DNA of 64,000 nucleotides, from NCBI GenBank assembly GCA_017644045.1, contig JAEPMI010000011.1:242763-306762 (forward strand), written 5' to 3'. The notes beneath the pieces were generated by a model. That model saw nothing but the letters and a program-made list of their open reading frames with translations. It ran no database searches and was not told the origin of the DNA. Source of the DNA: Deltaproteobacteria bacterium (lineage in GTDB: Bacteria > Myxococcota_A > Polyangia > Polyangiales > Houyiibacteriaceae). Shown piece after piece: positions 8,381 to 46,330 of this stretch (its first letter is position 1; the number at the start of each line of letters is the position of its first letter). The position numbers were made by a program, and so were the translations under genes.

Positions 8381-8435
8381 GAGGCGGAGGGTAGCTCAAC
8401 CGCCGCCGAGTGCGATCGGTCCGTCGGAACGATCG

Positions 8436-14351: not shown

Positions 14352-14683
14352 GCGTCGACAGGGAGCGCGTGCTGCACGACGTGGGCAAGTACGTCGCGCG
14401 CACGGCGATGAATCTGCCGGAGGGCGCGCTGGTCGCGCCCGCGCTGGCCGAGCTCATGCTGCGAGACGTCTACGGCCGCGGCGACGAGCCGCGGATGAGC
14501 GAGACCTTCGACGCGCTGGTCGGCGAGACCGACGATCCGGTCCTCGGCGAGTGTCGCGACTGCCTCCAGGAAATCGATGCCCTCGAGGGTGACGCTCGGG
14601 CCGGAGACGTGGACGCACTCACCCGGATCGCGACGCTCGCTCGCTCGATCAGCGAACGGCTGAAGGCGTGGGCGCGCGCGTGA
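14348..14683 (+). CDS. Small hypothetical protein (111 aa) with an HDVGKY motif
   Basis: ATGA overlap upstream, and overlap with the downstream start. Only LHDVGKY resembles an HD-domain fragment. Confidence 0.45.
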   Translation: MSVDRERVLHDVGKYVARTAMNLPEGALVAPALAELMLRDVYGRGDEPRMSETFDALVGETDDPVLGECRDCLQEIDALEGDARAGDVDALTRIATLARSISERLKAWARA

Positions 14684-16750: not shown

Positions 16751-16786
16751 TGGCCTGAATCGACGGGCTGGGTGTAGCTTGCGGCC

Positions 16787-18162
<1,376 letters not shown>

Positions 18163-18166
<4 letters not shown>

Positions 18167-21026: not shown

Positions 21027-21312
21027 TCGTTGGTTCCGTTCATTCGTTGGTCCTCAAAACTGCTCGACCGGGGCCAAGAGCGGCGAAGGATGACCGTCCG
21101 CTACGCTCGTGCAAGCCCAGCACTACCTACAGGTAGTACCATGTACGACATGTCGGAGTGAGGTCAAGAATCTGTGAGCCCTCACACCTGCTGGGACGTG
21201 GGACCCGAACGCCCATCCACGCCCAGCGACCCGGAGGGGGTATCACGGGCGCACGGATCCGATCCACCACGATTGCTCCGAGCGGGCGCCTTCTCTATCT
21301 TCCCCCGCACGC

Positions 21313-23681
<2,369 letters not shown>

Positions 23682-23685
<4 letters not shown>

Positions 23686-28991: not shown

Positions 28992-28998
28992 CGGGTCC

Positions 28999-30696
28999 TC
29001 AGATGTTGATGCTGTTGGGGACCCGAGAGGGCCGGTAGAAGGCGCAGTCGCGATAGCGGCTGGCGTCGCGCGCGACGATGGTCGCCTCGACGTTCTTCAG
29101 GGCGTCCTGGAAGTCGCGCACGATCGAACGAGTCCGCGGCAGCCAGCCGAGTCGATAGCGCCAGTAGGTCCCGATGCTGTCGAAGTGGAAGTCGCCGAAG
29201 GTGCTGTACGTGAAGCGGAGGTTGGCCGCGTCGAAGGGCGGGAGCATCGCGCGCCAGTGTGCTTCCGTGTCATCGGAGGGATCGGCGGGCGGTGGCGCGT
29301 AGGCCGACGCCGCGAAGGCCGGCGGATAGCGGTAGTACTCCATCTGCGAGAAGTGCTGCGACGCGTGCCCGGCGGTCGCGGTGTAGACCACCTGTGCCAG
29401 GATCCGGACCAGCGTCGCCTTGTTGTCGAGCGCTTCGCCCGGCTTGAAGAGACCGCGGAGGTTCCCTTCGGACGGGTCGGTCAGCTCCGCGACCCACCGC
29501 TGCATCTCCCAATCGGCGAGCACCTCGGAATCGTGCGCGTAGTACACGTCGACGTAGCGCTCGACGAAGGTGCGGATGGCGGCCGTGTAGAGCCGCATGT
29601 CGTCGCGGTAGGGGTAGACGGCGGGGCCGACGTCGACTCCGCGAGCGCTCACCTCCTCATCGAGCTCGAGCTTCCACAGCTCGTCCTCGTGGTGGGCGAT
29701 CTTCACGGTCTCCCGGAGCTCCTCGAGCGTGCCCGCGTAGAAGGTGAAGTAGGCATCCGTGCGGTCGACGAAGTTGTTGTACGCCGCCTCGTTCGTCCCG
29801 AGCGTGAAGCGCAGGTGGGGCTCGAGAAGGATGTAGACCGGGTGGTTCCGCGCGAGGTTCCGATAGGTCGCCATGCAGAAGGGGTCCATCGTCAGGTGCG
29901 TTCGGAGCACGTGACCCACGGCGACGTGGAAGTTCTCGTCGGCCACCTCCACGTAGAGCTTGCCGATGCGCCAGCCCATGCCGTCGGTCGGGTACCAGAC
30001 GCGGTTCGGCGGGTCGGCGTTCTTCTGGTCGACCTGGATGACCAGGGGGACCAGGTCACAGCCACGCGAGGGATCCGGGTCCTCCCAGAAGACCACGACC
30101 GGTGCAGGCAGGTACTTGTTGCGCCAGCGGGTGTCACGATTGGCCGGCGGCCGCAGCGAGCGCTGAAGGATCTCGTAGTCGAGGAAGTAGATCTTCCCCG
30201 CCGCGATCTCGGCGTCGAGCGTGGCGCCCCCGAGCTGCGCCTCGATGGCCGGCATCACCGTCGCCGGGTCGAAGAAGCGCCCCTCGAGATCGGCGCGGCT
30301 GGGGACCTTTCGCAGGCTGAGCGGGTTCGGTCCGGCGATGCGCCGCCATGCGAAGTCGACGTCCGAGTCGAAGTCGTCCACGTAGTCCGGCACGCGTCCG
30401 ATGAAGAGGTCCCGGTAGGCCTCGAGCTTGTCGTAGCGAAAGACCGCCTTCTGGAGGAGCGTCAGCCCCTTCTTCGCCGCGCGGTTTGCCTGCGCGAGTC
30501 CGTACAGAGGAAGGAACTTCGCGACCCAGGGCAGCCGGATCTTCTCGCTGACGAGCGGGAGCTCGCCGCTCGACATCACCGGGTCGAGCTGGTTCTCGTT
30601 CGGCGGCATCACGGCGTAGCGCTTGGCGCGACGAGCGATGAGCGTCTTTCGGAGCGCGGGAAAGCGGGCGTCGAAGGGCAGGGTGGGTTGGAACAT
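28999..30696 (-). CDS. Lipoxygenase (mini-LOX, 565 aa, no PLAT domain)
   Basis: Exact H-x4-H-x4-H-x17-H-x8-H signature (HVAVGHVLRTHLTMDPFCMATYRNLARNHPVYILLEPH). GHASQHFSQ. C-terminal ...VPNSINI (terminal Ile). ATG 30696-30694 overlaps the upstream TGA by 1 nt. The 891-aa ORF-track version is an artefact. Confidence 0.9.
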   Translation of the reverse strand: MFQPTLPFDARFPALRKTLIARRAKRYAVMPPNENQLDPVMSSGELPLVSEKIRLPWVAKFLPLYGLAQANRAAKKGLTLLQKAVFRYDKLEAYRDLFIGRVPDYVDDFDSDVDFAWRRIAGPNPLSLRKVPSRADLEGRFFDPATVMPAIEAQLGGATLDAEIAAGKIYFLDYEILQRSLRPPANRDTRWRNKYLPAPVVVFWEDPDPSRGCDLVPLVIQVDQKNADPPNRVWYPTDGMGWRIGKLYVEVADENFHVAVGHVLRTHLTMDPFCMATYRNLARNHPVYILLEPHLRFTLGTNEAAYNNFVDRTDAYFTFYAGTLEELRETVKIAHHEDELWKLELDEEVSARGVDVGPAVYPYRDDMRLYTAAIRTFVERYVDVYYAHDSEVLADWEMQRWVAELTDPSEGNLRGLFKPGEALDNKATLVRILAQVVYTATAGHASQHFSQMEYYRYPPAFAASAYAPPPADPSDDTEAHWRAMLPPFDAANLRFTYSTFGDFHFDSIGTYWRYRLGWLPRTRSIVRDFQDALKNVEATIVARDASRYRDCAFYRPSRVPNSINI

Positions 30697-33600
30697 CAGC
30701 GGGCCTGGACGTTGCGAAGTGAGAGACCGGGAGCCATGGCCCGCGTCCAGCGGGCCGGATCGGCGACGTCGAGCGCGACGAGGAGCTCGTCGATCTCGCG
30801 AACCTTGTCGGTGTCGCCGAGGATCTCGGCGGCACGGCGTCGGGAGGTGGCGGCGCGCACGGGCAGCGCAGCGCGCTCGAAGTGCCGCGACGAGAGCGCG
30901 AGACGATCGATCGCGCCCTCGTGGTCCCCGTCCTGGAGGACGATCGCGGCTTCCAGTGTCGCTCGGCGGCCGAGCGCGTAGTCGGTCTGGGCACCGCCCA
31001 GCCAGCGGCGGAGCATTCGCTTCGCGCGGCCTCGCATGCGGCGTCCACGCAGCCCCCGGGCGCCTTCGCTCACCGCGAGGAGCGCGCCGATGCGAAGCGC
31101 GCCGTAGAATTCGCGACCCACGCGCACCATGAAGAGGCCGGCTTTGCGCAGGCCGGGCCAGGCGTCCTCGATGCGCTCGTGGGCGCGCTCCGAGCGGCCG
31201 AGGTAGAGCTCCGTCAACGTGTCGATCGTGAGCGACGCGAAGCGCACGTACATCGCGAGGCCGGGCACCTTCTCCCGAGCCGACGCGGTCGAGCGGCGAG
31301 CCACGGCCGGGTGGCCCAGCGCCAGCGACGCATAGGCGCCGTCGACCATGGCGGCGGCCTCGGTGTACGGGTTCCCGACCTCCCGCGCGTCCGCGACGAT
31401 CCGCTTCGTTCGCTCGTCGAGCTCGCGGAAGCGGTCCAGGTAACGGAGCTGAGTGGGGATCTGCATCAACGCCGCATGGCGGACACCGACGGTGTCCTTC
31501 ACCCGCACGAGCTGCTGATGAGCCGCCTCGAGCTCTTCGAGTGCACGAAGCCAGTCGTCCTCCATGAACGCCTGCAGCCCGCGCGCGTAGGCGGCGGTGC
31601 CGAGCGCCTCGGGCGTGTCGACGCGCTTCGCGAGCTCGGTCGCGCGCGCGAGCAGGATTTCGGCGCGCTTCCATCCGAAGTTCGTGAAGAAGCTGCCGAG
31701 TACCGCCGTGCCGACGGCGACCGAGTGGGTGTCACCGGCGCGGAGGGCCAGCTCGTACCCCTGGATGTAGTAGTGCAACGCACGCACGAGGTCGGAGAGG
31801 GTCAGCGACGGAGCCAGCGTGAAGCACGCGCGAATGCGGAGCGCCTCTTCGGTGGGGATCGACTCCTGCGGTCGCTCGTGAAGCTCCTGGTCGCGGGCCA
31901 CCAGACGGATCAGACGCGCTGCGGTCTGTAGGTTCATGCGCAGGCGCGAGCTCGCCGGAGGGAGACCGAGTTGCCTGCCGAGTGGCTCGAGCAGCCCGTC
32001 GCCTTCGCGGGTCGCGCCGCTGGTGTAGTAGGCCTGTGCGGCCGACAGCTCGAGCTTCGACCGCTCGAGCGGGTCGGCGAATTCCCGGGCGAGCGACTCG
32101 TGGAGCCGGGCGCCCTCGCGGCACCGCCCGGCGCGCACCAGCGCCTCCCCGAGCTTGCGCCGCAGCACCCGTCGCTCGCTCATCTGGGGCGGCGTCGCCA
32201 TCTTGTCGGTCCACTCGAGCGCGCGCTCGTAGAGCTGCACCGCCTCTTCGAACGCGAGGGCGCGCGCAGCGTCGTCCCCGGCGCGCTGTGCGTGCAGCGC
32301 TGCGAGAGCCGCTTCGCCCGCCTCGACGAAGTGCGGGAGGAGCGCGCGCGACGGCGCACCCTCCTCGGCCAGCGAGTGACCGATCGCGCGGTGGAGCTCG
32401 CGCCGCGCCGGCGCGCTCAGTCCTTCGAGCAGCGTGGAGCGGATGCGGCTGTGGTAGGGCGCCACTCGTTCGACGTCGCCGCTCTGCTGGGTCCGGAGCA
32501 GGCGCGCCGCCACCAGCCGATGGACGGTCGTGCGGTCGGCGGGGGTCTCGCTCGCGGCGCGGTGAGCGGCGGTGACGGTGATCGGCACGCCCGCCACGGC
32601 GACGACCTCGAGCAAGCGTTGCGATCCGGGCGGGAGCTTGCGCAGGCGGTCGGCGAGCACCTGCGAGAGCAGGAAGCGACGGTCGTCGCTGTCGGGGGTC
32701 TCGCCGGAACGGTCGCCGTCCAGATCCCAGGTGCCCGAGTTCCGTGCGTGGCGCGCGAGCTCCTCGACGAAGAGCGGGTGGCCCGCGGCTTCTTTCGCGA
32801 TGCGCTTGGCAATGGTCGGGTTGTTGGTCGCCAGGATTCGGCCAGCGAGGTCGGCGCTCGCGTCCGCACGGAGCGGCGTGAGCGCGATGCGAGAGACCGG
32901 CAGCGACGGGTCGCTCTCGATCCGTTCGAGCAGGGCACGAGGGAAGGGGCTCGACCGCTCTTCGCTGCGCATCGCGAGCAGCCAGAGCACGGGCGGTGCG
33001 GCCGCGCCGCGGAGCTGGTCGAGGAGGATCTCCGCGCTCTGAGGGTCGCCCCATTGTACGTCGTCGACGAACGCGACGATCGGCCGGTCGCGGCCCAGCC
33101 GGAAGAGCAGCTCGCGGAGCGCGCGGAAGCCGCGCCGACGCGCCGCGACGGGATCGCCGAGCAGCTCCGCGCTCGAGACCTCGGCAGACTGGAGCACGGC
33201 CGCGAAGACCGGGAAGAGTCGGGCGAGCTCGGCGGCGTGCGGAGGCAGGAGCGCGCGCAGCTGGGGACCGGCGATGCGACCGAGGTGGTCGCTGAGCTCG
33301 TCCACCAACGCGTCCATCGCCTTGTAGGGAACGAAGTCCTGCTCGTAGCAGCGGCCCGGGAGGAGGAGCGCGTCGCGCTGTCCGGCGACGGCGTCGAGGA
33401 AGGTCTCGACCAGCGCGGACTTGCCCATGCCGGACTCGCCCTCGAGGAGCACGAGCCGGGGCTCGGCGTGGCGGGTGGTCTCGTCGAACGCCTGATGCAG
33501 CGCCTGCAGCTCCTCATCGCGTCCGACCACGGAGAACGCCTGGTGCTTCGGCGTCTTCATCCGCGGCGCGCGGCCGCCGAGCCCACGCGCGACGTGTGCC

Positions 33601-34607
33601 GCGTCCGGGCGCTGCTTCGGCTGGACCTCGAGGAGCGCGTCGCAGAGCTCGGCGAGCCGCTCCGGGACCCGTGGGTTGAGGTCGCGGACCTTCGGCGCGC
33701 CCCCGCGCACCTTGCGCCAGAGCAAGGTCATCAGGTTGGGGTGTTCGTAGGGCAGCCGGCCCGTGAGCACCTCGTAGAGGATCACGCCGAGCGCGTAGAG
33801 GTCGCTCGGCGGCCCGACTTCGCGGCCCGTCGCCTGCTCGGGGGCCATGTAGTTCGGGGTGCCGATGACCATGCCGGTGCGTTCGCCGGCGCCGCGCGGG
33901 TCGAGCTCCGTCACCAGCCCGAAGTCGAGCACCACCGGGCGACCGGCGCTGCTGACGAGTACGTTGTGCGGCTTCAGATCGCGGTGAAGCATGCCCGCGC
34001 CGTGCAACGTCGCGAGCGCGTCGGCGACGTCACCGAAGACGCGCGCGATGTTGGTCCAGTCCAGGTCGACCGGGTTCGGTTCGGGAGGTCCTTCGAGCTC
34101 GAGCTCGCCGAGCGTCTGCGCGAGCGCCTTGTCCTCCTCGGTGGCGTCGAGCGGCGTCGGCCTCGGATCGAAGTGGGTGGCGTCGCTCTCGGAGCTGATC
34201 GAGTGCTCGGCCAGCCGCTGGTCGGTCGGCAGGATCTCGTCGACCATCATGGTCTGCATGAGGCTCGCGCCCGGCCGGAGCGTCGGTAGCGGGCCGCTCG
34301 GACGCAGATGGTCGGTGATCGGGGTGCCCTCGACGAGCTCCATCGCGAGGTACCAGGAGCCGTCCTCCACGAAGAGCTCGTAGAGCGCGACGAGGTTCGG
34401 GTGGCTCAGTCGGGCGAGCGACCGGAACTCGCGCTTGAACCGATAGAGTCCGCGAGCGTCCGCGCGGTGGAGCCGCTTGAGCGCGACCTCCGTTCCACGC
34501 TCCGTGTCCACGGCGGAGAAGACCTCGCCATAGCTGCCGGAGCCGAGCACTCCTTCGATTCGAAAGCGTCGCCCGACGATCGCTTTCGAAGAGGGGGCCC
34601 CCGCCAT
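30696..34607 (-). CDS. Ser/Thr kinase fused to an AAA/STAND NTPase and TPR-like repeats (1303 aa)
   Basis: Kinase motifs GSGSYGEV, ALK, HRDLKPHNVL, DFGLV and APE. P-loop LLEGESGMGKSAL. Long helical-repeat C-terminus. Confidence 0.9.
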   Translation of the reverse strand: MAGAPSSKAIVGRRFRIEGVLGSGSYGEVFSAVDTERGTEVALKRLHRADARGLYRFKREFRSLARLSHPNLVALYELFVEDGSWYLAMELVEGTPITDHLRPSGPLPTLRPGASLMQTMMVDEILPTDQRLAEHSISSESDATHFDPRPTPLDATEEDKALAQTLGELELEGPPEPNPVDLDWTNIARVFGDVADALATLHGAGMLHRDLKPHNVLVSSAGRPVVLDFGLVTELDPRGAGERTGMVIGTPNYMAPEQATGREVGPPSDLYALGVILYEVLTGRLPYEHPNLMTLLWRKVRGGAPKVRDLNPRVPERLAELCDALLEVQPKQRPDAAHVARGLGGRAPRMKTPKHQAFSVVGRDEELQALHQAFDETTRHAEPRLVLLEGESGMGKSALVETFLDAVAGQRDALLLPGRCYEQDFVPYKAMDALVDELSDHLGRIAGPQLRALLPPHAAELARLFPVFAAVLQSAEVSSAELLGDPVAARRRGFRALRELLFRLGRDRPIVAFVDDVQWGDPQSAEILLDQLRGAAAPPVLWLLAMRSEERSSPFPRALLERIESDPSLPVSRIALTPLRADASADLAGRILATNNPTIAKRIAKEAAGHPLFVEELARHARNSGTWDLDGDRSGETPDSDDRRFLLSQVLADRLRKLPPGSQRLLEVVAVAGVPITVTAAHRAASETPADRTTVHRLVAARLLRTQQSGDVERVAPYHSRIRSTLLEGLSAPARRELHRAIGHSLAEEGAPSRALLPHFVEAGEAALAALHAQRAGDDAARALAFEEAVQLYERALEWTDKMATPPQMSERRVLRRKLGEALVRAGRCREGARLHESLAREFADPLERSKLELSAAQAYYTSGATREGDGLLEPLGRQLGLPPASSRLRMNLQTAARLIRLVARDQELHERPQESIPTEEALRIRACFTLAPSLTLSDLVRALHYYIQGYELALRAGDTHSVAVGTAVLGSFFTNFGWKRAEILLARATELAKRVDTPEALGTAAYARGLQAFMEDDWLRALEELEAAHQQLVRVKDTVGVRHAALMQIPTQLRYLDRFRELDERTKRIVADAREVGNPYTEAAAMVDGAYASLALGHPAVARRSTASAREKVPGLAMYVRFASLTIDTLTELYLGRSERAHERIEDAWPGLRKAGLFMVRVGREFYGALRIGALLAVSEGARGLRGRRMRGRAKRMLRRWLGGAQTDYALGRRATLEAAIVLQDGDHEGAIDRLALSSRHFERAALPVRAATSRRRAAEILGDTDKVREIDELLVALDVADPARWTRAMAPGLSLRNVQAR

Positions 34608-34717
34608 GAGCGGGACTCTAGCGTCTCGGAGTCGAGCTTGGAACGACTGGATTTACGGGGCGTCCCTGCCTTTGGAGGTCCGGAGACTCCGGCTCCGAGA
34701 GCCGACGACCGACCCTG

Positions 34718-36184
34718 ATGTCGAGTACCCTTCGCCGGATGAGTGTGGCTGAGGGGCTGATGACCCGACTGCAGCAGTGGGTTCCTCCCACCGAGCGGCG
34801 GTCGCGAGAGGCGATCCTCCGCGCGGGGATGCCGCCGCCCTGGCCAGAGTCGCCGATGCGGCAAGTGCGTCGGTGGGCCTCCGACATGGATGGGCTCCTC
34901 GGCGAGGCCGCGGCCACTGGCAGCGCGTGGACCTTCGACTTCTGGCGCCAGGGGCGCATGGCGGTCTTCACCTCGGAGTCCGCTCGCCGCCAGGTGCTGG
35001 CGGCGGGTCCCGAAGAGCTCGGCCACGCGAACGATCTCGCCGGGCTCTTCGTCGGCCCGCATTCGCTCCTGCTGCGCAACGGCGAGGACCACGCACGTGC
35101 GCGGCGTCGAACCCTCAAGCTGATCGGAGCGGAGCGCCTCTCGGTCTACGGGCAGGCGATGCTCGACGTGACCCGCGAGTGGCTCGCGACGCTCTCCCCC
35201 GGCGACGAGATCGAGGTGCTCGACGCCTGCCAGAACATGACCCTCGACATCATCCTGCGGACGGTGCTCGGCGTCCCGCCAGGGCCCGACTACGACGCTC
35301 TCCACGCCGCGGCGCGTGCGTTCATGATGAGCGGCCGCTCGGTCGCGGGGAACCTCGCGGCGCTCCTGTTGCCCACGGACGCGCTCCGTGGCGCCGTGCT
35401 GGGTCCGGAGGACCCGACCGGCGGCTCGGCGACCCTGGGGGCTCTGGGGCGGTCGCTACCCGGTGCCGTGGAGGGCCGCACGCTCGTCTCGCTCCTTCGC
35501 GCCTCGATCGCGCGCCGCCGTGCGAAGCCGGACGGTGACGATGTGCTCGCCAGGCTCGTCCAGGAAGGCGAGCTCGGAGACGCGGCCATCCTCGACGAGA
35601 TCGCCACCCTCCTGCTCGCGGGCCACGACACCACGGCCGTCACCCTCGGGTGGATGCTCTACCGCATCGGCCGGCGACCGACCCTCTGGACCGAGCTCCG
35701 CACGGAGCTCGAGGCCCACACCGAGGGCGAGCCGCTGGACCCGACGAAGCTGCCTCGCCGAGGCCTGCTCGGCGCGTGCGTGATGGAGAGCCTGCGCCTC
35801 GACGGACTCACGCTGGGAGTGCTCCGCCGCGCACGGCGCTCCGTGATGATCGACGGCTACCGGATCCCCGCGGGGACCTTGGTCAACGCCCTGGTCCGCC
35901 CGCGACACATCGACCCCGAGCGATGGGACGATCCGGAGCGCTTCGCGCCCGAGCGCATGCTCTCCGCGAAGCCCGCGCCCCACGAGTTCGCGCCCTTCGG
36001 TGGAGGCTATCGGCGCTGCGTCGGAGCGTCCTTCGCGACCTATGAGATGCAGATCGTGCTCGCAGGGATCGCGGAGGCGATCGAGCTCCACACGCCGCCG
36101 GACGTGGTGGTCGATCGGGTTCAGTACGGGCCCTTTCCCGGTCCGAGCAACCGCATCCCGATGCGGGTCGTCGCCCGCCCCTGA
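34718..36184 (+). CDS. Cytochrome P450
   Basis: I-helix AGHDTT, ExxR (ESLRL), PERF-like DPERFAPER, and heme loop FAPFGGGYRRCVGASFA. Confidence 0.9.
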   Translation: MSSTLRRMSVAEGLMTRLQQWVPPTERRSREAILRAGMPPPWPESPMRQVRRWASDMDGLLGEAAATGSAWTFDFWRQGRMAVFTSESARRQVLAAGPEELGHANDLAGLFVGPHSLLLRNGEDHARARRRTLKLIGAERLSVYGQAMLDVTREWLATLSPGDEIEVLDACQNMTLDIILRTVLGVPPGPDYDALHAAARAFMMSGRSVAGNLAALLLPTDALRGAVLGPEDPTGGSATLGALGRSLPGAVEGRTLVSLLRASIARRRAKPDGDDVLARLVQEGELGDAAILDEIATLLLAGHDTTAVTLGWMLYRIGRRPTLWTELRTELEAHTEGEPLDPTKLPRRGLLGACVMESLRLDGLTLGVLRRARRSVMIDGYRIPAGTLVNALVRPRHIDPERWDDPERFAPERMLSAKPAPHEFAPFGGGYRRCVGASFATYEMQIVLAGIAEAIELHTPPDVVVDRVQYGPFPGPSNRIPMRVVARP

Positions 36185-36207
36185 GAAGAGTCGCGGACCC
36201 AACGAAA

Positions 36208-36235
36208 GAGGCCACCCCGTCGCCGGAGTGGCCTC
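36208..36235. terminator. Candidate bidirectional hairpin between the convergent P450 and exbD-like genes
   Basis: GAGGCCAC-12 nt-GTGGCCTC. T-rich only on the minus-strand side (ctctttcgtt). Confidence 0.35.
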
Positions 36236-36255
36236 GATTCGTAGCGTCGCTTCGC

Positions 36256-36831
36256 TCAGTCGGGTCCGCCGATGGACCCGGTCTTGTTGGTGACGAAGCG
36301 CAGGTTGCTGAACTCGGTCTGGCCGAGCGTGTAGATCACCTCGGACAGGGTCCGGAACGGCGTCCGGGAGTCCGCGACGATCTGCACCTCTCCCTTGAAG
36401 GGGCGGGAGGGCGTTCGCTGCTCGATGAGCTTCTGCAGGTCTCGGATGCGCCCCATCTCGCGGAAGAGCGGGGTGATCAGGAACCCGGTGCCGCCGCCCT
36501 GCTTCTGGCTGGGGTCGACCAGCCCGTTGCGGAGCTCGAGGATGGTGTTTCCGTCCACGACGATCGCGTTGCGCGAGATCTGGATCGGGGTGGCTTCCCC
36601 CATCTCGATCTCGGTGGTGGAGTAGGGGATCCGAAGCTCTTCCGACTGCGTGATCGCGGCCGCCGAGGAGGACGCGAACTGCATGACCATGAAGACGAGG
36701 AGAATCGTCATCATGTCCATCATCGGGTAGATGTTGAGACCGTGCCCTTCGGGCTCGGGGTGCTTGGCGATGCGGCGGCGGATCTCCCGCTTCACCGCTC
36801 CCATCGACGCTTGTTCTTCTTCTTCGGCCAT
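36256..36831 (-). CDS. ExbD/TolR-family protein (triad A, distal)
   Basis: Single TM helix with the conserved Asp (NIYPMMDMMTILLVFMV) and a periplasmic ExbD-like domain. GAGGTAA Shine-Dalgarno. Confidence 0.8.
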   Translation of the reverse strand: MAEEEEQASMGAVKREIRRRIAKHPEPEGHGLNIYPMMDMMTILLVFMVMQFASSSAAAITQSEELRIPYSTTEIEMGEATPIQISRNAIVVDGNTILELRNGLVDPSQKQGGGTGFLITPLFREMGRIRDLQKLIEQRTPSRPFKGEVQIVADSRTPFRTLSEVIYTLGQTEFSNLRFVTNKTGSIGGPD

Positions 36832-36835
36832 GGTG

Positions 36836-37390
36836 TTACCTCACGCCCGCTGAGATGAGCACGTCGGGGAAAAGTTCCTCGCCTTCTTTGTCGCGCACCG
36901 CATCCATCGCCGAGACCAGGTCCTGGAACTCGACCAGGTTGTCGGCGGAGACGGTCACGCGAGTCTCGTCGGGGAACTCCTGCTTCACCGTCGACACGCA
37001 GTTGCGCAGCCCCTCCCAGTCGTAGTCGTTGCCGCGCTTGGGCACGGTGAGGACGTCGCCGGTCGAGGTGGTGGCGCAACCGGGCGCGAGCTTTCCGCCC
37101 GAGCCGGTCACGGTGATGCCGTTCTGCGTCACGAACACGCTCAGGTTGAGCTGAGGCTCGTCCGAGGCTCGCCGCCCCACGCCGCCGCTCGAGTACGTCG
37201 GTAGCGACGCTTCGAGCTGCGAGTAGAAGGCGATCGAGCTCGTGATCATGAGCAGGAACATGATCAAGTTCACGACGATGTCGAGGAACGGGATGATGTT
37301 CAGCTCGTCATCGGTCTCATCCGGCCCGGGCTCCTCGTACTTGGAGCGCTTCCGGATGTAGGCGCGCTGTTGTGCACTGAATTGCGGCAT
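36836..37390 (-). CDS. ExbD/TolR-family protein (triad A, middle)
   Basis: LNIIPFLDIVVNLIMFLL TM helix with Asp, plus an ExbD-like C-terminal domain. Confidence 0.8.
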   Translation of the reverse strand: MPQFSAQQRAYIRKRSKYEEPGPDETDDELNIIPFLDIVVNLIMFLLMITSSIAFYSQLEASLPTYSSGGVGRRASDEPQLNLSVFVTQNGITVTGSGGKLAPGCATTSTGDVLTVPKRGNDYDWEGLRNCVSTVKQEFPDETRVTVSADNLVEFQDLVSAMDAVRDKEGEELFPDVLISAGVR

Positions 37391-37403
37391 GGGGCGAGCC
37401 CCG

Positions 37404-38033
37404 TCAGCCCTTCGGGCGGAGCGTCAGCAGGTTCTCGAGCTTGGTCGCCGCCTTCTCCATCTCCGTCTTCTGCTTCTTGGCCATACCGTGCAGCACGAGG
37501 TGCGCGGTCATGCAGATGACGGCGATGAGGAGGCCGAGGAAGGTGTTCCACATGGCCTCGGCGATACCGGCCGAGAGGATCTTGGACTTCTCGCCCGGGT
37601 CGTCGATGGCACCGACGGCCTTGAAGGCCGTGATGAGGCCCTTGATGGTCCCGAGGAGACCGATGAGCGTCGCGATGTTCGCGAGCGTCCAGAGAGAGCC
37701 GATGCGCTTCTCCAGCCGCGGCAGCTCCTCGCCCATCCGCTCGTCCATCGCAGCGATGATCGCCTCCTCACCTCGGTTGACCTGGGTGAGACCAGCCTTG
37801 CAGACCTGCAGGAGCGGCAGCGGGGCTGCTTCGCAGAGCTTGATCGCGCGATCGATGTTGCCCGCCTGCACGAGCTTTCGGATCTGCCCCATGAACTCGG
37901 TCGTGTTGACCCGGTACTTGGTCAGGATGAACACGAAGCGCTCCGCGATGATCGCGAGCGCGAGGGCCAGCACTCCGATGTTGATGAACGAGAACGGAGC
38001 TCCCTCCATCAACGCATGCCAGACTTCTTCCAT
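37404..38033 (-). CDS. MotA/TolQ/ExbB-family proton channel (triad A)
   Basis: MEEVWHAL... contains three TM helices and the family C-terminal core LSAGIAEAMWNTFLGLLIAV. AGGAG Shine-Dalgarno lies before ATG 38033. The ORF-track start 38441 is too early. Confidence 0.85.
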   Translation of the reverse strand: MEEVWHALMEGAPFSFINIGVLALALAIIAERFVFILTKYRVNTTEFMGQIRKLVQAGNIDRAIKLCEAAPLPLLQVCKAGLTQVNRGEEAIIAAMDERMGEELPRLEKRIGSLWTLANIATLIGLLGTIKGLITAFKAVGAIDDPGEKSKILSAGIAEAMWNTFLGLLIAVICMTAHLVLHGMAKKQKTEMEKAATKLENLLTLRPKG

Positions 38034-38385
38034 CAGTAGGCTCCTATGGATGGCTCGGCTCGTCGTGGCCGAGTCGCCGTCCCCCCCGAGGGGCCCAATC
38101 GCGCCTGCGATTTGCCTTGGTCGGGCGGAATCCCTTGAAATCGTTGAACTTTCGCGGTTTTTAGGCCGCTTTCTCAGGGGCGACGCTACCGCAGCGCCGC
38201 TCGGGTTGTCAACGGAATCGGATGGGCATCCTGAACCCCCCATGAAGAGCACCTCTGGACGAGAGAAAAGGAGGGGCTCCCCAAATGAAGAGAGATGGCC
38301 GGGAACTTTTGCTCGCGAGTGGCCTCTCAGCCTCCACGTCAGCGAGGTCCCCGCACGGACATTCAGCCAGCCCGTCGGATCCCCG

Positions 38386-38413
38386 TTGACTTGTGGGCAC
38401 CACTCTGTATCAT
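38386..38413 (+). promoter_or_regulatory. Candidate sigma-70-type promoter for triad B
   Basis: TTGACT (38386-38391), 16-nt spacer, TATCAT (38408-38413), about 145 nt upstream of ATG 38559. Pattern match only. Confidence 0.3.
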
Positions 38414-38558
38414 CGCCCTCGCTCGAGCCCAGCCGTCCCAAATTGGTTGGTTTTTCGGGCTCGTTTCAAGATTTCGCAAGGTTCTGACGAGGACCGAGGC
38501 GGCACCGCATGGAGCGGGCCGCAGCTCCGGTCCGAGGTTTTCCAGGAGGCAGTCTGAC

Positions 38559-39212
38559 ATGTCGGCAATCGCACACCATTTCGACGAAGGCGGATGGGCG
38601 ATGTACGTCATCCTTTTCTGGCTTGTGATGGCGATTGGTTTCTCCATCGAGCGTGCCGTCTATCTCTATAAGGCGAGCATCAACAAGGATGTGTTCCTCG
38701 CGACGATGCAGAAGTGCATCTTGGCCGGTGACATCGGCCGCGCGATCAAGCTCTGCAGCGCCGCCAACGCGCCGCTCGCTCGTATCGTGAAGGCTGGCCT
38801 CATGAAGGTGAACCGGCCGGACGCGGAGGTTCAGGCCGCGATGGACGAGGCCGCGCTTCGCGAGCTCCCCAAGATCGAGGCTCGTACCCCGTTCCTCGGT
38901 CTCTTCGCCAACCTCGCCATGCTCTCGGGCCTCTTCGGCACCGTTCTCGGTCTCATCGGCGCGTTCGCTGCCGTTGCCGGCGCGGACCAGGCCTCGAAGG
39001 CCACCATGCTCGCCAAGGGTATCTCCGAGGCCATGAACTGCACGGCCTTCGGTCTCCTCTCGGCCATCGTCGCTCTCATGAGCATGGCGGTGCTGAACGG
39101 TAAGACCCAGGGTCTGCTCGACGACATCAACGCCGCGACCGTCCAGGTGATGAACCTTGTGGTGAACAACCGCTCCAAGGTGAACCTGCAGGGTCTCGAG
39201 CAGGGCGCCTGA
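38559..39212 (+). CDS. MotA/TolQ/ExbB-family proton channel (triad B)
   Basis: MSAIAHHFDEGGWAMYVILFWL... Paralogous to triad A (AGDIGRAIKLCSAANAPLARIVKAGL versus AGNIDRAIKLCEAAPLPLLQVCKAGL). AGGAGG Shine-Dalgarno. Confidence 0.85.
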   Translation: MSAIAHHFDEGGWAMYVILFWLVMAIGFSIERAVYLYKASINKDVFLATMQKCILAGDIGRAIKLCSAANAPLARIVKAGLMKVNRPDAEVQAAMDEAALRELPKIEARTPFLGLFANLAMLSGLFGTVLGLIGAFAAVAGADQASKATMLAKGISEAMNCTAFGLLSAIVALMSMAVLNGKTQGLLDDINAATVQVMNLVVNNRSKVNLQGLEQGA

Positions 39213-39249
39213 GGCGCTCGAACACAGGACACCTAGGAGGAACTGAGCC

Positions 39250-39726
39250 ATGGGCGGTATCGACACCGGTGGTGGACACGGCGGAAAGAAGAGCGTGGAC
39301 CAGGAGATTCCCCTGATCCCGTTCATCGACCTCCTGTTCTGCTGCATCATGTTCCTGCTCGCCACGGCCGTGTGGAACCAGCTGGCCCGCATCGCGGCCA
39401 ACCAGCAGACCCCCGGCCAGGCGCCCAGCGACGATCAGCCCCCGCCCGAAGAACGGGTGAAGCTCATCCTCCAGGTGCAGAACTCCGGCTACAAGCTGGC
39501 GTCCACCGCGGGCGACGACTTGCCGATCCCCAAGAACGGCGACGAGTACGACGTGGAAGAGCTTCGTAACAAGCTGCAGGAGCGCAAGCGCCTCGAGCCC
39601 AACCGGCAGGACATCATCGTCGCGCCGGAGGACGGGGTTCGCTACGAGGACGTGGTCACGGCCATGGATCTCGTGGTGGGCGAAGGCTTCCCGCAGATGA
39701 CCCTCAGTGACGGCGCCACGCTGTAA
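39250..39726 (+). CDS. ExbD/TolR-family protein (triad B, middle)
   Basis: IPLIPFIDLLFCCIMFLL TM helix with Asp. IPKNGDEYDVEELRNKL parallels VPKRGNDYDWEGLRNCV of triad A. AGGAGG Shine-Dalgarno. Confidence 0.8.
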   Translation: MGGIDTGGGHGGKKSVDQEIPLIPFIDLLFCCIMFLLATAVWNQLARIAANQQTPGQAPSDDQPPPEERVKLILQVQNSGYKLASTAGDDLPIPKNGDEYDVEELRNKLQERKRLEPNRQDIIVAPEDGVRYEDVVTAMDLVVGEGFPQMTLSDGATL

Positions 39727-39738
39727 GGATCGATACTC

Positions 39739-40278
39739 ATGGCCGTACACACCCCCGGACCGGTACTGCTCCACCACATCCCGCTCAAGTTCGTGCGGGA
39801 CAAGGTGGGTGGCGGAGGCCGAAAGAACGTCGACCAGTCACTGCCGCTGGTTCCGTTCATCGACTTCCTCATCGTTCTCATCGTGTTCCTGATCATGAAC
39901 TTCGCGGCGTCGGGTGAGCTCCTCGCGCAGAAGGCCTCCATCCGGATGCCCAACGCGTCGAACACCGAGACCCTGGAGATCTCGCCGGTCATCGCCATCG
40001 ACGATCGCGTCGTCACCCTCGACGGTGACCGCGTGGCCGATGCGAACACCCTGGCGCAGTCTCCGCAGCTCGACCGGATCGAGGCCCTCGTTCAGAACCT
40101 CGAGACCCAGAAGCGCAACTGGGGCATCCTCCATCCGGCGGAGCCTTTCCCGGGCGCCATCATCCTTCAGGCCGACGTCGACGTGGACTTCCGCGTCATC
40201 AAGAAGGTCATGTTCTCGGCGGCTCAGGCCGGCTACGCGAACGTGAACTTCGCGGTCAACAAGACCGGCGGCGACTGA
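39739..40278 (+). CDS. ExbD/TolR-family protein (triad B, distal)
   Basis: LPLVPFIDFLIVLIVFLI TM helix with Asp. C-terminal ...NVNFAVNKTGGD parallels ...NLRFVTNKTGSIGGPD of triad A. Confidence 0.8.
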   Translation: MAVHTPGPVLLHHIPLKFVRDKVGGGGRKNVDQSLPLVPFIDFLIVLIVFLIMNFAASGELLAQKASIRMPNASNTETLEISPVIAIDDRVVTLDGDRVADANTLAQSPQLDRIEALVQNLETQKRNWGILHPAEPFPGAIILQADVDVDFRVIKKVMFSAAQAGYANVNFAVNKTGGD

Positions 40279-40301
40279 GCCGACCGGCATTCGAGAAACG
40301 A

Positions 40302-40340
40302 GGCGCGTTCCTTCGGGAGCGCGCCTTCTTTCTTTGTTTC
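40302..40340 (+). terminator. Rho-independent terminator after triad B
   Basis: 10-bp stem GGCGCGTTCC / GGGAGCGCGCC with a TTCG loop, followed by TTCTTTCTTTGTTTC. A second perfect hairpin GGGGCTGG-cac-CCAGCCCC follows at 40343-40361. Confidence 0.7.
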
Positions 40341-40456
40341 TAGGGGCTGGCACCCAGCCCCTCTCTCCTCGGCGAAGCCTCGTCGATTCACCCGAACTCC
40401 CCCGCCCATTGGGTTGCGCCTTTCCTAAGGCCGACCTGTTCGGATATTGCCTGGGG

Positions 40457-41899
40457 ATGCGCTTCCTGCACCCCGAACGCGACGAGCAGCTCGAGCTCGC
40501 GCTCGAAGACGTCTTCATCGTTCCCGATCTGTTCGACGGCGGATCGCGCCTCGACGTGGATCTCACGCCCGACGACTTCGGTGGCGCCAGCCACCCGATC
40601 GTCTCCGCCAACATGAACGCGGTCACCGGCAAGCGAATGGCCGAGACCATGGCGCGGCTCGGTGGCCTCGGCGTGCTGCCGCAGGACATGACGCTCGCGA
40701 CGGTTCGCCGGATCGTCGAGCACGTGCATCGGGCGCACGTTCGCTTCGACACCCCGCTGGTGGTCGAACCGGAAGCGACCCTTCGTGACGTCCAGGGGAT
40801 CATTCACAAGCGGGCCCACGACATGGTCGTGGTGGTCGTCAACGATCGTCCAGTCGGCATCCTGACGCAGGCCGATCTGCAGGACCGCGATCAGTACACC
40901 CTGGCCGAGAACGCGATGTCCCGCGACATGGTGACGCTCGGCGCCGATCTCGAGCCGCGCGCGATGTACGAGCGCATGCGGACCAGTCGCGTTCGTTCGG
41001 CGCCTGTCGTCGCCGCCGACGGGCGGTTGGTCGGCATCGTCGGTCGGTGGGATCCGGTCCGTCAGTCGATCCTCGAGCCCGCGCTCGGAGGAGCAGGCAA
41101 GCTCCAGGTCGCGGGCGCGGTGGGCATCAGCGGCGACAGCGCGGAGCGCGCGGCGGCGCTCGTCGAGTACGGGGTCGACTGCGTGGTGGTCGACACGGCG
41201 CATGGTCATCAGCGCCGGATGCTCGCGACCCTCGGTGAGGTGCGCGAGTCCACCGGTGGCAAGGTGCCGATCGTCGCGGGCAACGTGTGCACGGCACCAG
41301 GCACGGCGGCGCTCCTCGACGCGGGCGCCGACATCGTGAAGGTGAACGTGGGCCCCGGCGCCATGTGCACCACGCGTATGCAGACCGGCGTCGGTCGCCC
41401 GAGCTTCAGCTCCGTGCTCGCCTGCGCGCGCGAGGCCCACTCGCGCGGCGCGAAGGTCTGGGCGGACGGAGGCGTGCGGCACCCGAGGGACGTCGCGCTC
41501 TACCTGGCGGCCGGCGCGTCGCGGGTGATGATCGGCACCGCCCTCGCGGGAACCTACGAGAGCCCCGGCGATCTCCGAACGGATCCCGAAGGCCGTCGCT
41601 TCAAGGAGAACTACGGCATGGCGTCCGCGCGCGCCGTCAGCGATCGGACCGAGAAGGACGACGCCTTCACGCGCGCGCGGAAGGCCTTCTTCCGTGAGGG
41701 CATCAGCACCTCGAAGATCTACCTGCGCTCGGGGTTCGAGAGCGTGGGCGACATCGTGGTCGACATGATCAGCGGGGTGCGCAGCACCTTCACGTACGTG
41801 GGCGCGAAGAACCTGCAGGAGCTCCGCGAGAAGGTGGTCGTCGGGGTGCAGACGCCTCACGGCTACGGCGAGGGGACCCCTCACGGCCGCGAGCGCTGA
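40457..41899 (+). CDS. GuaB1-type IMP dehydrogenase-family protein (GMP-reductase-like, with a CBS pair)
   Basis: MRFLHPE...DVFIVP...SANMNAVTGKRMAETMARLGGLGVLPQD, catalytic loop GPGAMCTTR, and GGVRHPRDVALYLAAGAS. ORF-track start trimmed to ATG 40457. Confidence 0.8.
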   Translation: MRFLHPERDEQLELALEDVFIVPDLFDGGSRLDVDLTPDDFGGASHPIVSANMNAVTGKRMAETMARLGGLGVLPQDMTLATVRRIVEHVHRAHVRFDTPLVVEPEATLRDVQGIIHKRAHDMVVVVVNDRPVGILTQADLQDRDQYTLAENAMSRDMVTLGADLEPRAMYERMRTSRVRSAPVVAADGRLVGIVGRWDPVRQSILEPALGGAGKLQVAGAVGISGDSAERAAALVEYGVDCVVVDTAHGHQRRMLATLGEVRESTGGKVPIVAGNVCTAPGTAALLDAGADIVKVNVGPGAMCTTRMQTGVGRPSFSSVLACAREAHSRGAKVWADGGVRHPRDVALYLAAGASRVMIGTALAGTYESPGDLRTDPEGRRFKENYGMASARAVSDRTEKDDAFTRARKAFFREGISTSKIYLRSGFESVGDIVVDMISGVRSTFTYVGAKNLQELREKVVVGVQTPHGYGEGTPHGRER

Positions 41900-42558: not shown

Positions 42559-43917
42559 TTGAGTTGGGGCCCAGCACCCCGCACTGTCCCCTCGTTGGCC
42601 CCGACCCCCGAGACCCCGGCCGACCGACCTCTCGGTCAGTCGATGGACATGCGCGCCGATCCGCTCGGCTTCCTCGAGCGGATCGCGAGCGAGCACGCCG
42701 AGGCGGGCATCGCGCCGCTGCGGCTCGGCCCGGTGGACGGGTACCTGGCCTTCGCTCCCGCGATGGTCGAGCAGGTGCTGCGCTCGTCGATGCGGAGCTT
42801 CAACCGGCAGACGCCGGTGTACCAGACCCTCACGCGTTTCCTCGGCAAGGGCATTCTCACCTCCGAGGGCGAGCCGTGGCGCAAGCACCGCCGGGTGGTG
42901 CAGCCCGCGTTTCATCGCCGTCGCCTCAGCACCTTCGCGAGCGCGATGGTCCGGCTGGCCGACGAGGCCGTCGACCGCTGGGACGACACCATCGACCTCG
43001 GCGCGGAGATGATGCGCCTCACCCTCTCGGTGGTGGGCGAGACGCTCTTCGGGACCGACATGCGCTGGATGGCCAGCGAGCTGACCCCTGCGCTCGACAC
43101 GGCTCAGCGACACACCGAGCGCGTCATCGCCGGTCTGATCCCCGCGGACGAGTCGAGCACCTCACGCCGCGGGCGACGCTTCGATCGCGCGGTGGAGACG
43201 TTGGACGAGCTCGCCTACCGGCTCATCGACGAGCGTCGCGCCGCTGGAGCCGAAGGCGACGACGTCCTCGGGATGCTGCTCGCCGCGACCGACGAGACCG
43301 GTGAGATGCTCCCGCGACGGCAGGTTCGAGACGAGGTGCTCACCCTGGTGAGCGCGGGCCACGAGACGACTGCCAACGCCCTGAGCTGGACGCTGCTGGC
43401 GCTGAGCCGCCACGCGGACGTGTGGGAGCGTCTGGTGGAAGAGGTCGATGCCGCCGTCGGCGAGCGTGCTCCGACCATCGAGGACGTCGCCCAGCTCACC
43501 TACGTCCGCCAGGTGCTCGACGAGTCGATGCGGCTGCGTCCGCCGGTCTGGACCTTGGGTCGCATCGCCGACGAGCCGGTGGACCTCGGTGACGAGGTCA
43601 CCGTGGCGCCCGGGGAGCTGGTGTTGCTCAGCCCGTGGATCACTCATCGGCTGCCCACGCTATGGCCCGAGCCGGAGCGCTTCCAACCGGAGCGATGGGT
43701 GGAAGGCGTCCCAGCCCATCCCTTCGCGTTCTTTCCCTTCGGCGGTGGGGCTCGAAAGTGCGTGGGCGAGGCGTTCGCCTACCTGGAGGCCACGCTGGTG
43801 CTCACGCGGATCGCTCAACGGGCCCGGCTCGAGCTGGTGGGCGCGGCGCCGGAGCCGGAGCCCCAGATCACGCTCGGGGTCGGTAGCGGGGTCCAGATGC
43901 GGGTGCGCCAGCGCTGA
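42559..43917 (+). CDS. Cytochrome P450
   Basis: AGHETT, ExxR (ESMRL), PERFQPERW, and FFPFGGGARKCVGEAFA. The start is uncertain (TTG 42559 or ATG 42643). Confidence 0.9.
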   Translation: MSWGPAPRTVPSLAPTPETPADRPLGQSMDMRADPLGFLERIASEHAEAGIAPLRLGPVDGYLAFAPAMVEQVLRSSMRSFNRQTPVYQTLTRFLGKGILTSEGEPWRKHRRVVQPAFHRRRLSTFASAMVRLADEAVDRWDDTIDLGAEMMRLTLSVVGETLFGTDMRWMASELTPALDTAQRHTERVIAGLIPADESSTSRRGRRFDRAVETLDELAYRLIDERRAAGAEGDDVLGMLLAATDETGEMLPRRQVRDEVLTLVSAGHETTANALSWTLLALSRHADVWERLVEEVDAAVGERAPTIEDVAQLTYVRQVLDESMRLRPPVWTLGRIADEPVDLGDEVTVAPGELVLLSPWITHRLPTLWPEPERFQPERWVEGVPAHPFAFFPFGGGARKCVGEAFAYLEATLVLTRIAQRARLELVGAAPEPEPQITLGVGSGVQMRVRQR

Positions 43918-44924: not shown

Positions 44925-45265
44925 CGTCACCCTTGTGGAAAGCAAGACCCGGACCGTTGCATTTTCTGGTCGCCGACCCCGGTTTTGGGGCCGATCGGGC
45001 CGGATTGAGCGTGAACCGTGGCACCACCCGTTGCCGAAAGGCACCACCAGGTGGCTATCCGAGAAGCCACTGAAGCCGCAAATTCACGGCCCATTCGCGC
45101 TCGTTGTCGGGGCTACGGACGGGCCGTAACGCGCATTTCACGAGAACTTCGCGAGTGTGAAGGGGGATCGATGCTCGCCCGACGCCTCGGCGAGGCACGT
45201 GGTCTGCATTGGTAACCGCGCATCGGATCCCCCGACGGGACCGAAGAGCCGGACCGCCTCTCATC

Positions 45266-46330
45266 ATGCTGGATTCCAAACCATTCGACCGCAGCCCCTT
45301 TCGCGGGACCTTTCTCGACCGGATGCCCACGCATCCACTTCGCACGCTCCGTCGCGCCGCCCTCGCGATGGCGAAGAAAGAGACCCCGCTGCTGACCCAG
45401 CTCGTGGTCATCCGGCGCTGCAACCTGACCTGTGGCTACTGCAACGAGTACGACGACCACTCGGACCCGGTGCCCAAGGAGGTCCTCTTCGAGCGGATCG
45501 ATCACCTGGCGAAGCTCGGGAACCTGATCCTCACGCTCACGGGCGGCGAGCCCTTCATGCACCCGGACCTGCACGAGGTCGTGAAGCGCGCCGTCGACCA
45601 CGGGATGATCGTGACTTCGATCTCCAACGCCTACCCGGTCACGCGCCGACGCATCGAGCAGATGAACGAGGCGGGACTCACGCTCCTGCAGGTCAGCGTC
45701 GACAACATGGAGCCCAACGAGGTCAGCCAGAAGAGCTGGTCGAAGATCAAGAAGCGCCTGCTGGTCATGCAGGAGCACGCGAAGTTCAAGGTCAACGTCA
45801 ACGCGGTGCTCGGCTCGTCGCCCCCCGACTCGACTCGGAAGCTGATCGACGAGATTCGATCGCTCGGCTTCTACATGACGGTCGGCCTGCTCCATGACCA
45901 GAGCGGCGCCATCGACTCCGGGCTGATCGGCGACATCCTCCCGGAGTTCTACGAGGAGATGCGCGAGCTCTGTCGGAAGAGCTTCTTCCACCAGTTCGGC
46001 GAGGGCTGGGAGCAGAAGATGCTCCGCGACGGAGAGGCGCCCTGGAAGTGTCGGGCCGGAGCGCGCTACCTCTACGTCGACGAGCATGGGGCGGTGAACT
46101 ACTGCAGCCAGCGCCGCGGCGAGCCGGGCACGTCGATTCTCGACTACGGGCGCGCGGACCTGAAGCGCGAGCACGGTCGGGCGAAGGGCTGCGAGGACCA
46201 CTGCACCATCGCGTGCGTCCGACGCGCCTCGAGCTTCGACGAGTGGCGGCCCCAGACGAGCGCTCCGCGTCCACCCAGGGTCACCGTTTCGCGCGACGAC
46301 GGCCGGGTCGGGCTGCCGGTCGCGGTCTGA
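45266..46330 (+). CDS. Radical SAM enzyme with a SPASM/twitch-like C-terminal Cys region
   Basis: CNLTCGYC (CxxxCxxC), GGEPF, then C-x12-G-x4-C (CRAGARYLYVDEHGAVNYC) and CEDHCTIAC. The start is uncertain (ATG 45266 or a later in-frame ATG). Confidence 0.8.
   Translation: MLDSKPFDRSPFRGTFLDRMPTHPLRTLRRAALAMAKKETPLLTQLVVIRRCNLTCGYCNEYDDHSDPVPKEVLFERIDHLAKLGNLILTLTGGEPFMHPDLHEVVKRAVDHGMIVTSISNAYPVTRRRIEQMNEAGLTLLQVSVDNMEPNEVSQKSWSKIKKRLLVMQEHAKFKVNVNAVLGSSPPDSTRKLIDEIRSLGFYMTVGLLHDQSGAIDSGLIGDILPEFYEEMRELCRKSFFHQFGEGWEQKMLRDGEAPWKCRAGARYLYVDEHGAVNYCSQRRGEPGTSILDYGRADLKREHGRAKGCEDHCTIACVRRASSFDEWRPQTSAPRPPRVTVSRDDGRVGLPVAV

Follow-up and report, generated by a model that had tools for sequence, protein, structure and literature searches.

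The question raised by the DNA analysed here, a 64-kb stretch (64,000 nucleotides, hereafter the window) of contig JAEPMI010000011.1 in assembly GCA_017644045.1 of an uncultured deltaproteobacterium, is what is powered by two sets of ExbB/ExbD-like genes that stand head-to-head at positions 36256-40278. A first-pass annotation made from the sequence alone had read them as duplicated motors driven by the proton-motive force, each with one channel and two TolR-like subunits on the model of the Myxococcus motor AglRQS, and had inferred that their output partners are not encoded locally. The motor reading is supported by the clustering of both sets with the Agl family and by the orthology of one of them to AglRQS; very probably the locus consists of two separate operons of three genes, each encoding all the subunits of a proton-driven envelope motor of the Agl family, with the operon that we call triad B as the counterpart of AglRQS and triad A belonging to a distinct, older clade. 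In M. xanthus, AglRQS drives gliding together with Glt and spore-coat assembly together with Nfs, with GltG and NfsG as the respective transducers; the D28N substitution in AglQ abolishes both functions, and AglR interacts with GltG/NfsG (PMC3858216).

Gene content and family of the two triads

Triad A lies on the minus strand and comprises a MotA/TolQ/ExbB-family channel, A1 (37404..38033, 209 aa; Pfam MotA_ExbB, 84 bits), a middle ExbD/TolR-family subunit of AglQ type in position 2, A2 (36836..37390, 184 aa; Pfam ExbD, 53.2 bits), and a distal ExbD/TolR-family subunit of AglS type in position 3, A3 (36256..36831, 191 aa; Pfam ExbD, 42.8 bits). Triad B, on the plus strand, comprises the channel B1 (38559..39212, 217 aa; Pfam MotA_ExbB, 90 bits), B2 (39250..39726, 158 aa) and B3 (39739..40278, 179 aa), which are the orthologues of AglR, AglQ and AglS, respectively. 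The Pfam ExbD model matches A2, A3, B2 and B3 at 43-70 bits (cut-off 25.4); each triad thus has a PF01618 channel together with PF02472 plug/stator subunits, and in each the channel gene is followed by two different ExbD/TolR-family genes, the R-Q-S order. All six genes are intact, and the mirrored channel-ExbD-ExbD arrangement described by the first-pass annotation, around a spacer of 525 bp (38034-38558), is confirmed together with its coordinates and with every peptide that it quoted; in four independent assemblies, of this genome or of sister genomes, gene callers return identical products (209/184/191 and 217/158/179 aa).

Longer versions of the two channel genes, in which the A1 and B1 reading frames are extended upstream to 345 and 305 aa, were rejected as coding, since the gene callers start at 209 and 217 aa, some indels in the spacer would break the reading frame (their lengths are not divisible by three), and alignments with homologues begin at the short starts. 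Long antisense or intergenic open reading frames (ORFs) also run over the motor genes (37389-38039 on the plus strand; 38466-39401 and 39127-39777 on the minus strand), as is typical at 70% G+C, the approximate composition of the window.

The residues expected of a proton path are conserved in both triads. Each of the four ExbD-like proteins keeps the transmembrane aspartate, as had been claimed from the sequence (A2 D37, A3 D39, B2 D27, B3 D42), aligned to TolR D23, ExbD D25 and AglQ D28, and the channel residues T145, E173 and T178 of TolQ, shared with the ExbB proton path, are present as T128/E157/T162 in B1 and T129/E159/T164 in A1. B2 has in common with AglQ the N-terminal motif DTGGGxGGKKSxD and a Pro/Gln-rich linker, while the long basic cytoplasmic N-terminal tail of AglS recurs in B3 and A3; these tail and linker features fit the AglR5-AglQ-AglS heterodimer model (PMC11761067).

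Our reference for family assignment was the M. xanthus aglRQS locus (L009), recovered from a genome collection by an exact match of the published aglR cloning primer and encoding proteins of 245/162/194 aa, as published. By BLASTP, B1 matches AglR at 53% identity over 94% of its length (208 bits, E=1e-71), B2 matches AglQ at 36% (E=1e-22), and B3 matches AglS at 34% over 100% of its length (E=3e-32). The triad A proteins are more distant: A1 matches AglR at 38% identity and 115 bits, compared with 50 bits for E. coli TolQ and 37 bits for ExbB; A2 matches AglQ at 22% (E=3e-5), and A3 matches AglS at 21% (E=1e-10). The scores of all six window proteins against E. coli TolQ/ExbB/TolR/ExbD are far lower, none of the six reaches the NCBIfam equivalog cut-off for TolQ, ExbB, TolR or ExbD, and their sequence matches in the PDB are weak and limited to TolQ and ExbB chains.

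The phylogeny against AglR/Q/S, TolQR and ExbBD that had been proposed as a check places both triads in the Agl family. In neighbour-joining trees, that family is split from E. coli TolQ/ExbB in 200 of 200 bootstrap replicates and from TolR/ExbD in 197 of 200, with the position-3 subunits grouping together in 179 and the position-2 subunits in 158. B1-type channels join AglR in 198 replicates, and B2 with AglQ and B3 with AglS do so in all 200. The A-type channels, from the window, the loci L012 and L013 and the Kofleriaceae locus L014, form a clade of their own (200/200) outside the group that includes AglR and the channels of Agl/Glt core-complex loci, and the A2 and A3 groups are equally firm (200/200 each). 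Two published sets of gene sizes agree with these placements: a triad from Anaeromyxobacteraceae (230/163/190 aa) that clusters with triad B matches the reported Anaeromyxobacter AglRQS (224/162/194 aa), and the Kofleriaceae A-type triad (224/240/193 aa) matches Hoch_3392-3390 (223/242/187 aa). Judged by these sequence comparisons, triad B is the orthologue of M. xanthus AglR/AglQ/AglS, triad A is a separate, older Agl-family clade that is not orthologous to AglR/AglQ/AglS themselves, and neither triad is a Ton or Tol motor of the canonical kind.

A HMMER search of 1.84 billion cluster representatives returned only 130 at E<=1e-30, and in a neighbour-joining tree these 130 form a single clade far from E. 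coli TolQ/ExbB, with A1 and B1 in different sub-clades. B1 homologues are 80-97% identical across 120 database clusters, from metagenome-assembled genomes labelled Sandaracinus, Sandaracinaceae, Polyangiaceae or Myxococcota; of the 669 A2 homologues, the best 120 are 55-97% identical and, where named, all come from metagenome-assembled genomes of Sandaracinaceae, Polyangiales or Myxococcota. The labels of the B1 homologues and the G+C content of about 70% assign the window to an uncultured member of the Sandaracinaceae (Myxococcota, Polyangiales).

Triad B resembles M. xanthus AglR-AglQ-AglS (MXAN_6862-6860) in gene order, in size (217/158/179 vs 245/162/194 aa), in the equivalent of AglQ D28 (B2 D27), in the Thr/Glu/Thr set of the channel and in having no adjoining Glt genes; unlike AglR, B1 lacks the first ~25 residues, and unlike the M. 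xanthus aglRQS locus, triad B stands head-to-head with a second motor operon. A known system comparable to triad A by description is MXAN_3003-5, grouped here with sce2991-2993 and Hoch_3390-3392 as the M2 type, which is likewise a second complete R-Q-S set present in addition to aglRQS, although it is not adjacent to aglRQS and differs in size (260/173/193 vs 209/184/191 aa). Neither motility nor sporulation requires MXAN_3003-5, and two-hybrid tests showed no binding of MXAN_3003 to GltG or NfsG (PMC3858216); we found no mention of it in the later literature that we searched. One 260-aa database representative (P0141) was considered as the M. xanthus M2 and rejected, as it belongs to a triad of 260/174/157 aa from a metagenome.

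Output partners and competing explanations

A Pfam search of nearly every credible ORF in the window gave no TonB_C, TolA, TolB, Pal/OmpA or TonB-dependent receptor domain, which agrees with the absence of such genes noted earlier beside the triads; about eight ORFs have no Pfam match, and a very divergent TonB-like protein could be among them. A tblastn comparison of the window with 15 proteins, Glt-like or encoded nearby, of the core-complex loci L015 and L016 likewise gave no matches. The claim that the output partners are not encoded locally is thus borne out by both searches of the window, and since no partner gene is found there, we infer the partners and the gliding role and do not observe them.

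Homology to the published TolQ5R2 structure, and to the AglR5-AglQ-AglS model in which the motor contacts GltG (PMC11761067), predicts that five B1 subunits form a ring in the membrane and that one B2 and one B3 form a heterodimer that places the single aspartate-bearing helix of each in the pore of the ring. Protons passing the aspartates and the Thr/Glu ring would cause the complex to turn or ratchet, and the work would be handed to TonB/TolA-like inner-membrane transducers of the GltG/GltJ/NfsG type, belonging to Glt-like trans-envelope complexes encoded elsewhere in the genome. Operon A would provide a second 5:1:1 motor with the same subunit order and proton-path residues, and most likely energises a different Glt-like or TonB-like output.

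Some relatives of the window triads do adjoin partner genes. Agl/Glt "core complex" clusters, in which aglRQS occurs with gltC/D/E/G homologues, have been described in Bdellovibrio, Geobacter, gammaproteobacteria and Fibrobacter (Luciano et al. 2011, PMC3169522). Their motor proteins fall in the same protein clade as those of the window; in L015 and L016, R-Q-S genes are flanked by TPR (GltD/E-like) and FHA (GltG-like) genes, whereas the motor genes of the window stand apart from such partners.

The alternative that survives best, although we consider it improbable, is that one or both triads energise TonB-dependent outer-membrane transport as an ExbB-ExbD1-ExbD2 set, with TonB and the receptors encoded elsewhere. 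The Pfam families are identical, and ExbB-ExbD(-ExbD)-TonB systems, including M. xanthus Ton-Oar, share with the triads, as does E. coli TolQR-TolA, the superfamily, the proton-path residues and the predicted 5:2 architecture and delivery of force to a TonB/TolA-like protein. Three of the seven M. xanthus ExbB/ExbD clusters have no TonB gene, and in bacteria at large exbBD and tonB often lie apart. Membership of a different clade from E. coli ExbBD/TolQR (197-200 of 200 replicates) separates the triads from these systems, however, with triad B falling beside AglRQS, and the window lacks a TonB, TolA, receptor or Pal gene. The NCBIfam ExbB and ExbD equivalogs score only 20-40 bits against cut-offs of 123-216 (TIGR02797, 33-40 against 206; the ExbD models, 18-29 against 123-216), relatives that share their clade adjoin Glt-like TPR/FHA genes and not genes for TonB-dependent receptors, and in the eight related contexts examined, the neighbourhood of the module contains neither a TonB nor a receptor gene. 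Firm clustering with canonical ExbBD, with TonB nearby in relatives, was the pattern that the first-pass annotation had set against its own view; we looked for it and found neither part. A Ton role is contradicted by these comparisons for triad B and disfavoured for triad A.

Several points weigh against our reading of the triads as Agl motors of this kind, and they fall more heavily on triad A and on the gliding role than on the family of triad B. M. xanthus Ton-Oar (tonB1-exbB1-exbD1-exbD2) itself combines one ExbB with two ExbD proteins, so that the one-plus-two arrangement also occurs in a Ton system. The trees are distance-based neighbour-joining trees with 200 bootstraps, built on 143-209 columns and few named taxa; they contained E. 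coli TolQ/ExbB/TolR/ExbD, while the M. xanthus Ton ExbB/ExbD, MXAN_3003-5 and sce2991-2996 sequences were left out, and with the myxobacterial Ton ExbB outside the tree the case against a Ton role is weaker for triad A. No Glt, GltG/J-like or TonB-like gene was found by Pfam or tblastn in the window or in the 10-kb flanks. Gliding is reported only in a cultured relative, Sandaracinus amylolyticus, and the organism of the window is an uncultured metagenome-assembled genome. Finally, a channel that lies beside a vWA-like gene in locus L017 nests in the B-type clade, so that the output cannot be read from the clade alone.

In this gene pair (L017, 5010-7669), the gene that directly precedes the channel of the AglR/B-type clade encodes 664 aa with a faint match to YfbK_C, of vWA type, and the contig ends at the channel; the arrangement is reminiscent of the vWA force transducers linked to TolQ that PMC12204202 proposed.

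A second alternative, that the pair arose by a recent local inverted duplication and consists of redundant copies of one motor, or that triad A is a decaying copy, is very hard to sustain. It is suggested by the mirror-image layout, the common gene order and the position-by-position paralogy noted by the first-pass annotation, which is far above chance (A1/B1, 39% identity, E=4e-41; A2/B2, 32%, E=2e-19; A3/B3, 27%, E=3e-17); of the cross pairs, A2/B3 align only over the transmembrane helix (E=9e-6), and A3/B2 give no match. Identities of only 39/32/27% argue against a recent event, however, as do the A-type clade, which takes in Kofleriaceae and stand-alone loci, and the trees, in which A and B are sisters in none of 200 replicates and which therefore exclude a local duplication. 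The term "duplicated" holds for the triads in the sense that they are paralogous motors; it does not hold for their origin, which is an ancient paralogy between lineages that are not each other's closest relatives. Redundancy is further at odds with the finding that the second Agl-like set of M. xanthus cannot replace AglRQS (PMC3858216). Nor does triad A look like a gene set in decay, since it is intact, keeps the proton-path residues and has a coding-type G+C content at third codon positions (0.88-0.90). Among close relatives, identity at third positions is 72-95% compared with 87-98% overall for both triads; because the substitutions concentrate at third codon positions, both are under purifying selection, with triad A evolving faster than triad B.

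That the triads are TolQR-type motors of the Tol-Pal cell-envelope/division system is scarcely credible: TolQ/TolR are the top NCBIfam and PDB matches for several subunits, but they score 57-65 bits against a cut-off of 221 for TolQ (TIGR02796) and 27-30 bits against 127 for TolR, the channels are accompanied by two different ExbD-like genes each and not by a single one, Pfam finds no tolA, tolB, pal or cpoB in the window, and M. xanthus has a separate, published bona fide Tol-Pal cluster.

We tentatively suggest, as one possibility that others may well outweigh, that triad A drives some process of the envelope apart from gliding, such as one of the orphan Glt-like complexes, that the shared spacer coordinates its expression with that of the gliding motor, and that it represents a distinct, ancient Agl lineage kept coupled to aglRQS in Polyangiales (Sandaracinaceae and, from the published gene order, Sorangium) as a six-gene module with back-to-back promoters and symmetric leaders of ~140 nt. 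If true, this reading of triad A would give a genomic handle on the long-unexplained "second Agl motor".

The paired module and its spacer

The head-to-head pair is conserved in other genomes. It occurs with an intergenic region of ~490-530 bp in the window and its close relatives and in L020 and L021, which are deep Sandaracinaceae lineages, and with a spacer of ~1.2 kb in L012; across these four Sandaracinaceae/Polyangiales lineages, the six-gene module is kept despite completely different flanks in each case. A-type triads also occur alone in L013 and without an adjoining B-type triad on the short Kofleriaceae contig L014. A 244-aa "gene" called between the triads in L012 (6606-7340) has a low-complexity translation and is a spurious call, probably not real.

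The pairing has a precedent in Sorangium cellulosum So ce56, in which sce2991-sce2996 are listed as consecutive AglS-AglQ-AglR-AglR-AglQ-AglS homologues of 202/187/225/220/189/169 aa (Luciano et al. 2011, Table S3). This order is that of the mirrored A3-A2-A1/B1-B2-B3 genes of the window (191/184/209 and 217/158/179 aa), and both organisms are Polyangiales; the comparison rests on locus tags, lengths and assigned homologies in a table that gives no strands, and the mirrored layout was thus probably already contained in the 2011 gene order. The same study lists close AglR/Q/S homologues, with two sets in most Myxococcales, and places the two sets of Haliangium, Myxococcus and Stigmatella at distant locus tags (PMC3169522). 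Taken with the linkage in Sandaracinaceae and Sorangium, these distances indicate that linkage of the two sets is a Polyangiales trait.

The "shared control region" proposed by the first-pass annotation stands as a 525-bp spacer between the triads and is better described as two separate, back-to-back sigma-70-like promoters, whose -35 elements are ~173 bp apart; with this layout, the reciprocal regulation or co-regulation that the first-pass annotation had suggested may or may not occur. Operon B has a sigma-70-type promoter at 38386..38413 on the plus strand (TTGACT, 16-nt spacer, TATCAT) that matches 10 of the 12 consensus positions; it is 100% identical in L002 and L004, and GTTGACTTG and GTATCATCG are kept at identical spacing in L020 and L021. 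The putative sigma-70-type promoter of operon A, at 38183..38212 on the minus strand, has TTGACA (38212-38207) and TAGCGT (38188-38183) separated by 18 nt. It was recognised by phylogenetic footprinting and was not called by a consensus scan; its hexamers are kept in L020 (TTGACA/TAGCGT) and L021 (TTGACA/TAGTTT), where the rest of the promoter spacer has diverged. Between the two -35 elements lies the least conserved stretch of the intergenic region (38241..38300), where even close relatives share only 44-56% identity and differ by indels of 24 and 37 nt. Neither promoter is recognisable in L012, and there is no sigma-54 promoter consensus in the spacer.

Each operon has a leader of similar length, ~143 nt between the promoter and the A1 start codon for operon A and ~140 nt for operon B (38414..38558, plus strand), where it ends with an AGGAGG ribosome-binding site; transcription is predicted to start at about 38176 on the minus strand and 38420 on the plus strand. 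Promoter B and its leader together (38386-38558) are 97-100% identical in L002/L004, compared with 84-95% at the third codon positions of B1-B3; this conservation is absent in the more distant L012. The fold of the operon B leader is no more stable than that of shuffled sequence (z=-1.35), and we therefore claim no structured RNA; an Rfam search of 35900-40700 at E<=1 likewise gave no match.

Both operons end in a terminator-like hairpin with a 12-bp stem and a T-rich tail. That of operon A (36208..36235, minus strand; 9 GC pairs) lies 21 nt past the A3 stop codon, between A3 and a convergent P450 gene, and that of operon B (40300..40327, plus strand; GC-rich) lies 22 nt past the B3 stop codon. 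The region holds five terminator-like structures compared with 2.8±1.7 in shuffled sequences, a count that is not significant alone; we note only that the two 12-bp stems lie where the operons end.

The paired operons are genuine, but they are an ordinary find and reveal no new kind of system, the family and its two copies per genome having been published since 2011-2013. What is added is a sequence-level assignment in an uncultured Sandaracinaceae lineage, the persistence of the module through the turnover of its flanks, and two footprinted promoters. In practical terms, of modest value, the generic database labels "ExbB/ExbD/TolR" or "MotA" can be replaced by Agl-type, and a gliding-motor orthologue is identified in an uncultured marine or soil Sandaracinaceae lineage, where it stays firmly paired with a second motor of the Agl family as the genes around the two change. 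With both motors linked and conserved promoter elements now given for both operons, Polyangiales offer a setting in which to study the function of the second motor, a motor that has been without a function in the literature since 2011-2013.

Neighbouring genes and minor observations

None of the neighbouring genes is related to envelope motors; they encode a lipoxygenase, a Ser/Thr kinase-AAA protein, two P450s, an IMPDH-like protein, a CDP-alcohol transferase and a radical SAM enzyme. The lipoxygenase gene (28999-30750) stands beside a gene for an FAD/ALO-type oxidase and near the two cytochrome P450 genes, and this group (27636-36184 and 42559-43917) may be a lipid-oxidation set that flanks the motors. 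Another pair of genes, for a Lon protease and, after it, a protein of ~730-855 aa without a Pfam domain, lies about 10 kb from the motor module (21178-25976); the same pair is found in L012 (9090-14114) and L021 (1-2261), where it directly adjoins the module on the triad A side and the triad B side, respectively.

The sole exact sigma-54 consensus in the window (TGGCAC-N6-TTGC, 45019-45034) lies ~175 nt upstream of the radical SAM gene (45209-46330), and the window also encodes two sigma-54 activators (14593-16341 and 16778-18166). At 46437-47957 is a gene for a secreted-looking protein of 506 aa that has no Pfam match and consists almost entirely of tandem cysteine-rich units (C..C..DCG.C); it occupies the same place in L001 and L002. 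The gene at 6983-8395 joins a 3-beta-hydroxysteroid dehydrogenase/epimerase domain to a TMEM254-like membrane domain at the C-terminus, an unusual combination in a bacterium.

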